A DNA stretch of 64,000 nucleotides from assembly GCF_054482525.1 (NCBI RefSeq), contig NZ_CM137006.1; one strand, written 5' to 3'. Shown in pieces: positions 24,046-25,730 of the stretch (position 1 is the stretch's first letter; each line of letters opens with the position of its first letter). Position numbers and translations under genes: made by a program. The notes under the pieces are model-generated. The model was given only the letters and a program-made list of their open reading frames with translations. It did no database searches and was not told the DNA's origin.

Positions 24046-24262
24046 TATGCCGGATGTGGCGCACAAAACCAGCATTTCCAACGGACTTGTGGGCCTGATA
24101 AGACGCGTCAAGCGTCGCATCAGGCAGTTGGACCCGGTTGCCGGATGCGCGTAAACGCCTTATCAGGAAGTTGGGCACGGCTGCCGGATGCGGCGTGAAC
24201 GCCTTATCCAGCCTACAAAACCAGCATTTTCAACGGACTTGTAGGCCTGATAAGACGCGTCA
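24046..24262. repeat. BIME: cluster of REP palindromic units between ssuB and pepN
   Basis: Several REP-like palindromes (GCCGGATGCGGCGTGAACGCCTTATCCAGCCTAC, GGCCTGATAAGACGCGTCAAGCGTCGCATCAGGC) separated by a repeated linker AAAACCAGCATTT(C/T)CAACGGACTTGT; the last unit is interrupted by the IS. Confidence 0.85.
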
Positions 24263-24313
24263 TGAACTGCACCCCAAATGTTGGACATAATCTGACATCT
24301 GAAGGTGCAGTTT

Positions 24314-24835
24314 ATGAAACATTCATTTGAAGTAAAACTTGCCGCTGTAAATCACTACCTGGCTGGTCATGCAGGCATCATTTCTACGGCAAAACTCTTT
24401 CAACTTTCTCACACCAGCCTCTCACACTGGATTAATCTTTTTCTTCTTCACGGTCCTCGGGCACTGGATTGCAGACACAAGCGTAGCTATTCTCCTGAAG
24501 ATAAACTTTGCGTGGTTCTTTATGCTCTCGGGCATTCTGAGTCTCTACCCCGGGTAGCTGCCCGGTTTAACATTCCCAGCCACAACACGGTTAAAAACTG
24601 GATAAAAGGCTACCGCAAATCTGGTAATGAGGCCTTTATCAGGCGCAGGAAGGAGAAAAGCATGACCCGTTCTGATGATACCCATGAAAACGAGGCAAAC
24701 ATGACGCCGGAAGAGATGAAGAATGAGCTGCGTTATCTTCGCGCAGAAAATGCATATCTGAAAGCCATGCAGGAGCATCTCCTGGAAAAAAAGCGCCAGG
24801 AGCTGGAGAAAAAACGAAAGTCATCCGGAGCCTGA
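24314..24835 (+). CDS. IS3-family transposase OrfA (helix-turn-helix and leucine-zipper part)
   Basis: ORF-track 24305..24835 (GTG) with likely ATG at 24314 (MKHSFEVKL) preceded by AGGTG; ends just after the slippery heptamer A-AAA-AAG at 24787-24793. Confidence 0.85.
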   Translation: MKHSFEVKLAAVNHYLAGHAGIISTAKLFQLSHTSLSHWINLFLLHGPRALDCRHKRSYSPEDKLCVVLYALGHSESLPRVAARFNIPSHNTVKNWIKGYRKSGNEAFIRRRKEKSMTRSDDTHENEANMTPEEMKNELRYLRAENAYLKAMQEHLLEKKRQELEKKRKSSGA

Positions 24836-24939
24836 GGTGCGGACACTGCCAGTCTGACCTGTTAAAGGCTGCAGGGCTGGCCAGAAGCACGCTGTACTAC
24901 CAGCTGTCACTGCAGAAGGCTAAGGACAAGTATGCTGAT

Positions 24940-25662
24940 GTGAAACAGCTCATAGCCTCCATCTTCCATGAACACCGGGGATGTTATGGGTACCGGCGGA
25001 TCCATTGTGAGCTTCAGAAAAGAGGTCTTAAGTTCAGTGGCAAAACGGTGCGAAAACTGATGCAACAGCTCGGCCTGAAGTCTCCTGTGCGCCTGAAGAA
25101 ATACCGGTCTTACCGGGGAAATATGGGACTCGCTGCAGAAAATATCCTTCAGCGGCAGTTCAAAGCGGAAGCTCCCTGTGAGAAATGGGTGACAGATATC
25201 ACCGAATTCAGGGCTGGCGGACAAAAACTGTACCTGTCCCCGATACTTGATTTGTTTAACGGGGAAATCGTGGCGTGGGAAACGGCCTGCAGGCCTACAG
25301 AGGAGCTGGTGAAGCGGATGTTAAATAAGGGGCTGGAAAGCCTTGCTGAAGGGGAGAAACCGCTGCTCCACAGTGATCAAGGATGGCATTACCGGATAAA
25401 AAGTTATCAGTCCGCCCTGGCGGACAGAGGGTTAGTGCAGAGCATGTCGCGCAAGGGCAACTGCCTTGATAATGCGGTAATGGAGAACTTCTTTGGTCAC
25501 CTGAAAGAAGAAATGTACTATCGCCGGGACTACAGAAATGTAGAAGAGCTGGAAAATGCCGTTAACGAATACATAACTTACTGGAATCAAAAAAGAATAA
25601 AACTCAGTCTTGGGGGACTCAGTCCGGTAGAATACCGGACTGAGCATCAAAAAGCCGGTTAA
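24940..25662 (+). CDS. IS3-family transposase OrfB (DDE catalytic domain), probably expressed as an OrfAB fusion by -1 frameshift
   Basis: ORF-track 24940..25662 is in the -1 frame relative to orfA; that frame is open back to at least 24781, so it spans the A-AAA-AAG site. Confidence 0.85.
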   Translation: MKQLIASIFHEHRGCYGYRRIHCELQKRGLKFSGKTVRKLMQQLGLKSPVRLKKYRSYRGNMGLAAENILQRQFKAEAPCEKWVTDITEFRAGGQKLYLSPILDLFNGEIVAWETACRPTEELVKRMLNKGLESLAEGEKPLLHSDQGWHYRIKSYQSALADRGLVQSMSRKGNCLDNAVMENFFGHLKEEMYYRRDYRNVEELENAVNEYITYWNQKRIKLSLGGLSPVEYRTEHQKAG

Positions 25663-25694
25663 CTGAAACTGTCCAGGTTTTGGGGTTCAGTTCA

Positions 25695-25720
25695 GTCAAG
25701 CGTCGCATCCGGCATTTTGG
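25695..25720. repeat. Distal half of the REP unit split by the IS
   Basis: GTCAAGCGTCGCATCCGGCA directly after the right IS end completes the palindrome begun at 24242-24262. Confidence 0.8.
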
Positions 25721-25730
25721 CTCAAAAGTA

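Follow-up and report, generated by a model that had tools for sequence, protein, structure and literature searches.

The ssuB-pepN junction of Escherichia coli: a tandem array of REP palindromes, read as an atypical BIME, with IS1397 in the loop of one unit

In a 64,000-nucleotide stretch of DNA (hereafter the window; NCBI RefSeq assembly GCF_054482525.1, contig NZ_CM137006.1), the genes ssuB (+) and pepN (-) converge on a spacer of 1685 bp (24046-25730). This spacer has two components: (i) an array of repetitive extragenic palindromic (REP) sequences of 249 nt, i.e., a bacterial interspersed mosaic element (BIME); (ii) an insertion sequence (IS) of 1432 bp with a target duplication of 4 bp. 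The array is very probably an atypical BIME made of Y and Z2 palindromes and built on a tandem unit of 109 nt, with IS1397 inserted in the loop of its last Z2 palindrome. What was described in a first reading of the window (the original prediction) as an internally duplicated module is the normal tandem build of such a BIME (linker + Z2 + s + Y, 109 nt) and not a peculiarity of the strain. The lineage-specific parts here are an extra stretch of 44 nt (one spacer and the palindromic unit PU-c) and the IS. With these refinements, the original prediction is confirmed on all its points.

The array is wholly extragenic, between the stop codons of ssuB and pepN. Its parts are given below (PU, palindromic unit; energies are those of the RNA hairpins).

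24048-24064: PU-a, truncated Y-type unit reduced to its tail arm, TGCCGGATGTGGCG
24065-24088: linker copy 1, AAAACCAGCATTTCCAACGGACTT, 24 nt, head-to-head between PU-a and PU-b
24089-24126: PU-b, complete Z2-type unit with a GTGG head at left, -21.8 kcal/mol
24127-24138: s1, GTTGGACCCGGT, tail-to-tail spacer of 12 nt
24139-24169: PU-c, degenerate Y-like unit, -6.9 kcal/mol
24170-24181: s2, GTTGGGCACGGC, tail-to-tail spacer of 12 nt
24182-24216: PU-d, complete Y-type unit with CCTAC at its end, -15.1 kcal/mol
24217-24240: linker copy 2, AAAACCAGCATTTTCAACGGACTT, 24 nt
24241-24262: left half of PU-e (Z2-type); its final 4 nt, GTCA (24259-24262), are the left copy of the target duplication
24263-25694, strand +: IS1397 (IS3 family), 1432 bp, terminal inverted repeats at 24263-24287 and 25670-25694
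25695-25714: right half of PU-e, starting with the right copy of the target duplication (4 nt, GTCA)
25715-25730: tail of 16 nt, from PU-e to the pepN stop codon

The order of the units is thus half Y - linker - Z2 - s - (Y-like) - s - Y - linker - Z2, i.e., four complete palindromes (PU-b, PU-c, PU-d and PU-e) and a truncated one (PU-a), where the original prediction had counted at least four REP-like palindromes. GTGG/GTAG and CCTAC heads are present. PU-b, PU-d and PU-e fold at -15 to -22 kcal/mol, the latter at -17.1 kcal/mol, with a GTCAA loop, when its two halves are rejoined. The inner stem and the loop of PU-b and PU-e are identical. The duplication of the module composed of linker and REP, which had been aligned by hand, was recovered with a repeat finder: 24063-24110 and 24215-24262 are identical at 46 of 48 positions. 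The second copy resumes past the IS at 25699-25714, and the whole 64-nt linker-plus-palindrome module is identical at 61 of 64 positions. The palindrome of this second module is indeed the one split by the IS, since the halves of PU-e flank 24263-25694. The 24-nt linker occurs twice in the window, versus 0 expected from 100 shuffles.

The types of the units were obtained by comparison with Rfam. The model RF02564 (naRNA4) is a Y-s-Z2 REP pair built on REP325 of K-12. It matches 24092-24169 on the minus strand with 62.6 bits (gathering score: 59.5), the full 77-nt model corresponding to PU-c/s1/PU-b, and gives a further half match on PU-d. From these alignments, PU-b and PU-e are therefore Z2, PU-d is Y and PU-c is a degenerate Y. 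In the classification of BIMEs, BIME-1 associates Y, a long linker L and Z1 in a single copy, often with a site for the integration host factor (IHF); BIME-2 contains tandem copies of Y and Z2, joined head to head by a short linker S and tail to tail by s, l or r spacers; atypical BIMEs combine parts of BIME-1 and BIME-2, and tandem copies at one locus are well conserved (PMC3333891). The association of a Y/Z2 tandem with a linker of the long type therefore leads to the class of atypical BIMEs. Like the atypical BIMEs and BIME-2 of Gilson, Bachellier and Hofnung (PMC3333891), the ssuB-pepN array is an extragenic Y/Z2 array with locus-conserved linkers in tandem, an s-like spacer and a length polymorphism between strains. 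It differs from them by its head-to-head linker of 24 nt, which is related to L rather than to the S of BIME-2, and by one allele in which two adjacent units have the same orientation.

The IS at 24263-25694 is an intact IS1397, of the IS3 family. Its terminal inverted repeats have 25 nt and start with TGAAC. The frame orfA (24314-24835) encodes a helix-turn-helix, OrfB contains an rve DDE domain, and a slippery A AAA AAG at 24787-24793 (-1 frameshift) joins the two frames in an orfAB fusion of 449 aa that extends to 25662 with no internal stop; this frame is annotated as "programmed frameshift" in RefSeq. The element is 100% identical to copies annotated in RefSeq as "IS3-like element IS1397 family transposase", and it agrees with IS1397 in all features (length, repeats, open reading frames, frameshift, duplication of 3-4 bp and REP-loop target), with no notable difference. 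No coding sequence is interrupted here. The insertion is flanked by GACGCGTCA on the left and GTCAAGCG on the right, with the duplication GTCA/GTCA, and the excision of the IS together with one GTCA restores a Z2-type palindrome with a GTCAA loop; in other words, the target duplication consists of nucleotides of the PU-e loop. A natural empty site is found in strain 19KM1831, which is identical (615/615) to the window sequence minus the IS and one GTCA. This proves the insertion, whose site is the loop of the hairpin.

It must be noticed that the terminus of the IS pairs with the start region of orfA in a hairpin at 24260-24317 (-29.7 kcal/mol, z = -5.25). One side of it comprises the 3 nt just before the IS and the initial 11 nt of the element, the other the ribosome-binding region and the ATG (24314-24316) of orfA. 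This hairpin can be formed only in transcripts entering from outside the IS, and on the basis of this fold it may limit the activation of the IS from outside.

IS1397 is known to insert into REP hairpins, and its transposase is reported to recognise REP units. Distinct IS1397 loci were collected via an exact look-up of OrfA; the seven top IS matches fetched for site sampling all correspond to one and the same cysE-trmL locus. At cysE-trmL, IS1397 stands between TGCCGGATGCGATGTAAT and AATCATCTATCCGGCA, in a REP-like palindrome, with AAT as target site duplication. The other fully resolved IS1397 copies are all (8/8) in the loop of a Y or Z2 unit, with 2-4 nt repeated on both sides. Taken together, the window copy, the cysE-trmL copy and these eight copies therefore support a specific insertion into the palindromic units of BIMEs, in line with the earlier view that REP arrays are targets of this IS. 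Two other copies (L102 and L103; GCA_900149875.1) have no recognisable right end, and an IS110-family transposase gene is found where OrfB is expected. A third one (L101; GCA_000692635.1) has 1791 bp, i.e., 359 bp above normal.

The linker was searched, with short flanks, in 5426 complete E. coli RefSeq genomes; this collection is clinically biased, so the frequencies given hereafter are not population frequencies. It was found in 2249 genomes, at a median of two places per genome, and is therefore confined to the ssuB-pepN locus. The motif search envisaged at the outset thus returned this locus only, and the idea of a generic genome-wide BIME motif was rejected. The idea of a linker unrelated to any known motif was rejected as well, for it aligns with the long linker of the nadR-ettA BIME of K-12, where the only K-12 match, partial and limited to 22 nt, is found. 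This BIME (L011 178-300 / L100 6549-6855) contains Y - AAAACCAGCAATTTCAATACGTTGTAAAACT - Z2 and has a Y-L-Z2-s-Y design. According to the alignment, the ssuB-pepN linker is the nadR-ettA long linker (31 nt) minus 7 nt, the first 17 nt being common to both with one substitution in the window copies. The nadR-ettA BIME, which has the nearest relative of the linker, resembles the ssuB-pepN array in the order of the parts, the palindromes and the s spacer; it differs in having a linker of 31 nt that matches the IHF consensus WATCAANNNNTTR at 8 of the 9 specified positions, versus 24 nt and at best 6/9, on either strand, for the ssuB-pepN linker. A candidate IHF site in the latter was rejected on this consensus match, and IHF binding to the ssuB-pepN linker appears doubtful because 6/9 is the best that this sequence reaches.

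These results bear on two other readings of the array. A canonical BIME-1, i.e., a RIP or RIB element (repetitive IHF-binding palindromic element, reiterative IHF BIME), with an IHF-binding long linker, would also present the head-to-head Y-linker-Z layout, and the first 17 nt of the linker do match those of the nadR-ettA linker with its 8/9 IHF consensus. However, the partner of Y is Z2 and not Z1, there are 2-3 modules in tandem instead of a single one, the linker is 7 nt shorter than the L type and the IHF match falls to 6/9, which makes this reading very improbable. It is hardly likely either that the array encodes a functional nucleoid-associated small RNA of the naRNA4 type. The match of RF02564 at 24092-24169 (-) exceeds the gathering score, and REP325, the source of the naRNA4 description, is a similar array of Y and Z2 units (PMC4550694). 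On the other hand, RF02564 represents a plain Y-s-Z2 pair, so that a similar BIME pair is expected to score well without any dedicated gene, and in this strain the whole IS stands between the matching unit and pepN. The likeness is that a Y-s-Z2 pair fits the full 77-nt model above the gathering score; the difference is that REP325, within the yjdMN operon, forms a six-fold array, while the ssuB-pepN locus offers one pair between convergent genes. An ordinary REP pair can thus exceed the RF02564 threshold, and automatic annotation would call a small RNA gene there. Besides naRNA4, the sole Rfam match above gathering score in the window is the PyrD leader (RF02373, 12546-12619, minus strand, 97.9 bits).

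The reading as an atypical BIME remains by far the most probable, though several points weigh against it: (i) the 24-nt head-to-head linker corresponds neither to the short S, which is canonical, nor to a complete L motif; (ii) PU-c and PU-d have the same orientation, which breaks the strict alternation of BIMEs in the rare 249-nt allele only, the orientation alternating (a>, <b, d>, <e) in the common 205/206-nt alleles; (iii) a consensus scan of the array gave no promoter and no terminator composed of a hairpin and a T-run, the absence of the latter being the unfavourable result; (iv) any effect of the array or of the IS on ssuB or pepN mRNA is inferred from published REP biology; (v) the number of independent IS1397 insertions at the PU-e loop cannot be fixed without a strain phylogeny.

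The array shares with REPINs and their RAYT (REP-associated tyrosine transposase, TnpA-REP) the inverted REP doublets with a linker and the GTAG/CTAC heads. A Y1 transposase (RAYT) has been proposed to amplify REPIN doublets. By contrast, the ssuB-pepN array is at the same locus in each genome examined, with nothing indicating current mobility.

Within E. coli, the BIME allele is present in 2249 of the 5426 genomes, with empty spacers of 194, 205, 206 and 249 nt. The common form (205/206 nt) is composed of half-Y, linker, Z2, s, Y, linker and Z2. In the 194-nt form, the final palindrome has lost its outer arm. The 249-nt form, found in 59 genomes upon 5426, contains 44 additional nt (s1 + PU-c). 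PU-c and s1 make a tandem repeat of 43 nt (about 24119-24208, 2.1 copies), and from the sequence of the junction, CTTATC/AGGAA, we infer a possible slippage from the Y head back to the Z2 tail. The 205-nt allele, having fewer than two full units, gives no array with Tandem Repeats Finder.

The ssuB-pepN spacer is devoid of REP in 3166 of the 5426 genomes (58%), including K-12, B and O157. An unrelated, single-copy perfect hairpin of 42 nt is found instead, i.e., CCCCGAATGGCGGCG-CTAT-TGCCGCCATTCGG (L005 397-438 in K-12 DH1; also L006 in O157, L008 and L009). The RefSeq tables of K-12 contain no REP features, even over the nadR-ettA BIME, and the absence of REP at ssuB-pepN in K-12 was judged from the 42-nt sequence, not from REP annotation. 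The allele classes total 5415 of the 5426 genomes, and the length of the spacer goes from 42 to 1685 bp across the E. coli genomes examined. The expected variation of local copy number and IS occupancy between strains is thus observed, with empty spacers of 194-249 nt and IS1397 in 185 genomes.

Outside E. coli, one genome per species was scanned for the pepN 3' region. The two-module BIME is found in Escherichia sp. E1V33, E. whittamii and strain E69. Strain SCPM-O-B-8794 (L021 3404-3710) has three modules over 307 nt, with a period of 109 nt, 2.6 copies and 94% matches. E. albertii NBRC 107761 (L024 3404-3530) has a single degenerate Y-linker-Z2 module whose first Y unit is full-length. Compared with the unit retained in E. 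albertii, PU-a of E. coli lacks about 18 nt, and this full-length first Y suggests that PU-a is a Y unit with an internal deletion of 18 nt. Since the modules are shared with other Escherichia species, the module and its duplication predate E. coli, and only PU-c and the IS are recent. Citrobacter and other genera contain other palindromes or simple hairpins in the pepN 3' region. Hairpins designed like the 42-nt one of K-12 are found at the ssuB-pepN position in Raoultella terrigena and Enterobacter sp. 10-1 (L095, L098).

IS1397 occupies the PU-e loop in 185 of the 5426 E. coli genomes; both orientations occur, and the junctions are of two types. A left junction oriented as in the window was found in 39 genomes. 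In 146 genomes (e.g., CB6886, L007 1069-2500), the element lies the other way round at exactly this nucleotide of PU-e; this copy is carried by the 205-nt BIME allele and shows 15 differences from the window IS. The 2065 empty and the 185 occupied sites give, within one, the 2249 linker-bearing genomes, so that insertions elsewhere in the array must be very few, if any. In the forward orientation, the junction is GTCA/GTCA in the window and PCN033, and TCA/TCA in strain 1190, strain ST70 and a contig of the European Nucleotide Archive (L105, L111, L112). The flanks of the genomes with a TCA junction are identical to those of the window over 2.6 kb (0 mismatches), while their IS copies differ at 4-14 positions. 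The TCA junction could correspond to a third insertion, or to a deletion of 1 nt plus gene conversion.

Two historical explanations can be confronted with these data. The duplicated module could be a recent, strain-specific rearrangement, possibly linked to the IS: its two copies are 95% identical and the second one adjoins the IS. This explanation is virtually impossible and is refuted by the comparative data, for the two-module layout is present in every genome examined with a BIME allele, with or without the IS, including the strain with the empty site, which has both copies; E. sp. E1V33, E. whittamii and E69 have the same layout, and SCPM-O-B-8794 has three modules; and the linker is present in 2249 genomes, at a median of two copies per genome. 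Less extreme, but still improbable, is the explanation that IS1397 entered the PU-e loop only once, the other orientation and the TCA junction having arisen by inversion, 1-nt deletion and gene conversion, in which case the site would not be a recurrent target. Of the 59 genomes with the 249-nt allele, 39 have the IS in one orientation, which suggests a shared ancestry, and the flanks do not differ between the GTCA and TCA forms (0 mismatches over 2.6 kb); moreover, the IS copies of the TCA form are not all alike, as gene conversion would yield. However, the copy in the opposite orientation is on a different allele (205 nt, without PU-c), with different flanking single-nucleotide polymorphisms and an IS that differs at 15 positions, and an inversion in place would require a recombination between imperfect repeats of 25 nt. 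An old tandem BIME, whose PU-e loop is probably a recurrent target of IS1397, is the preferred explanation.

The two genes bordering the spacer are the following, their names being taken from the RefSeq annotation of matching genomes and their limits from the open reading frames and this annotation.

23278-24045, strand +: ssuB, last gene of ssuEADCB, whose stop codon is the left border of the spacer
25731-28343, strand -: pepN (aminopeptidase N), convergent with ssuB

The difference between the alleles extends into ssuB, as compared on loci L005, L006, L020, L022 and L025. Over the last 390 nt of ssuB, the window and K-12 differ by 30 mismatches, 20 of which are in the final 66 nt (23980-24045). 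The C-terminus of SsuB is different as a consequence: K-12 has RGESETRLRKQG (ending in ESETRLRKQG) and the genomes with the BIME carry another end. The BIME-type end is also that of E. sp. E1V33 and, one substitution apart, that of E. whittamii, while SsuB of Citrobacter youngae, RGENEVQLRKQG (ending in ENEVQLRKQG), resembles the K-12 form. In the five other Escherichia lineages sampled, no form but the BIME was seen. It may be proposed, tentatively and as a rather unlikely case, that the ssuB-pepN 3' junction is an old two-allele block at intermediate frequency, BIME versus 42-nt hairpin, which would extend about 35-66 nt into ssuB and alter the last residues of SsuB. If this is true, and if the two forms set different ssu/pepN expression, the locus would be a natural regulatory polymorphism, of which the BIME form would also be a recurrent landing site for IS1397.

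The formation and the working of the array are very probably as follows. The tandem repetition of the 109-nt unit (linker + Z2 + s + Y) built the array, and a later local duplication of 44 nt added PU-c. Each unit, on transcription from one side or the other, folds into a stable hairpin. As can be supposed from established REP biology, such hairpins in the shared 3' region of convergent transcription units would shield the mRNA upstream of them against 3' exonucleases and prevent part of the read-through. REPs are described as terminator/stabiliser elements that sit between convergent genes and go with a higher expression of both (bioRxiv 10.64898/2026.03.23.713779). IS1397 then entered the apical loop of the pepN-proximal Z2 unit, duplicating GTCA. 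What the insertion costs locally is that pepN no longer has its first downstream hairpin and that the two genes stand 1.4 kb further apart. Transcripts of pepN would enter the IS antisense to orfB; ssuB keeps three intact hairpins upstream of the IS, and its read-through would enter the IS in the sense direction.

All the parts are of kinds already known, i.e., an atypical BIME, IS1397 in a REP loop, and a BIME polymorphism in presence or absence and in length; the latter polymorphism was reportedly the subject of Bachellier et al. in 1997. As a by-product that is only mildly unexpected, the BIME/hairpin dimorphism extends into the end of ssuB. The locus illustrates textbook points: (i) BIMEs consist of tandem modules and differ in length from strain to strain; (ii) at a given site, a BIME can be present or absent within one species; (iii) IS1397 goes to the loop of REPs. 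The value of the result lies mainly in annotation, and the length of the spacer together with the two orientations of the IS is usable as a strain marker.

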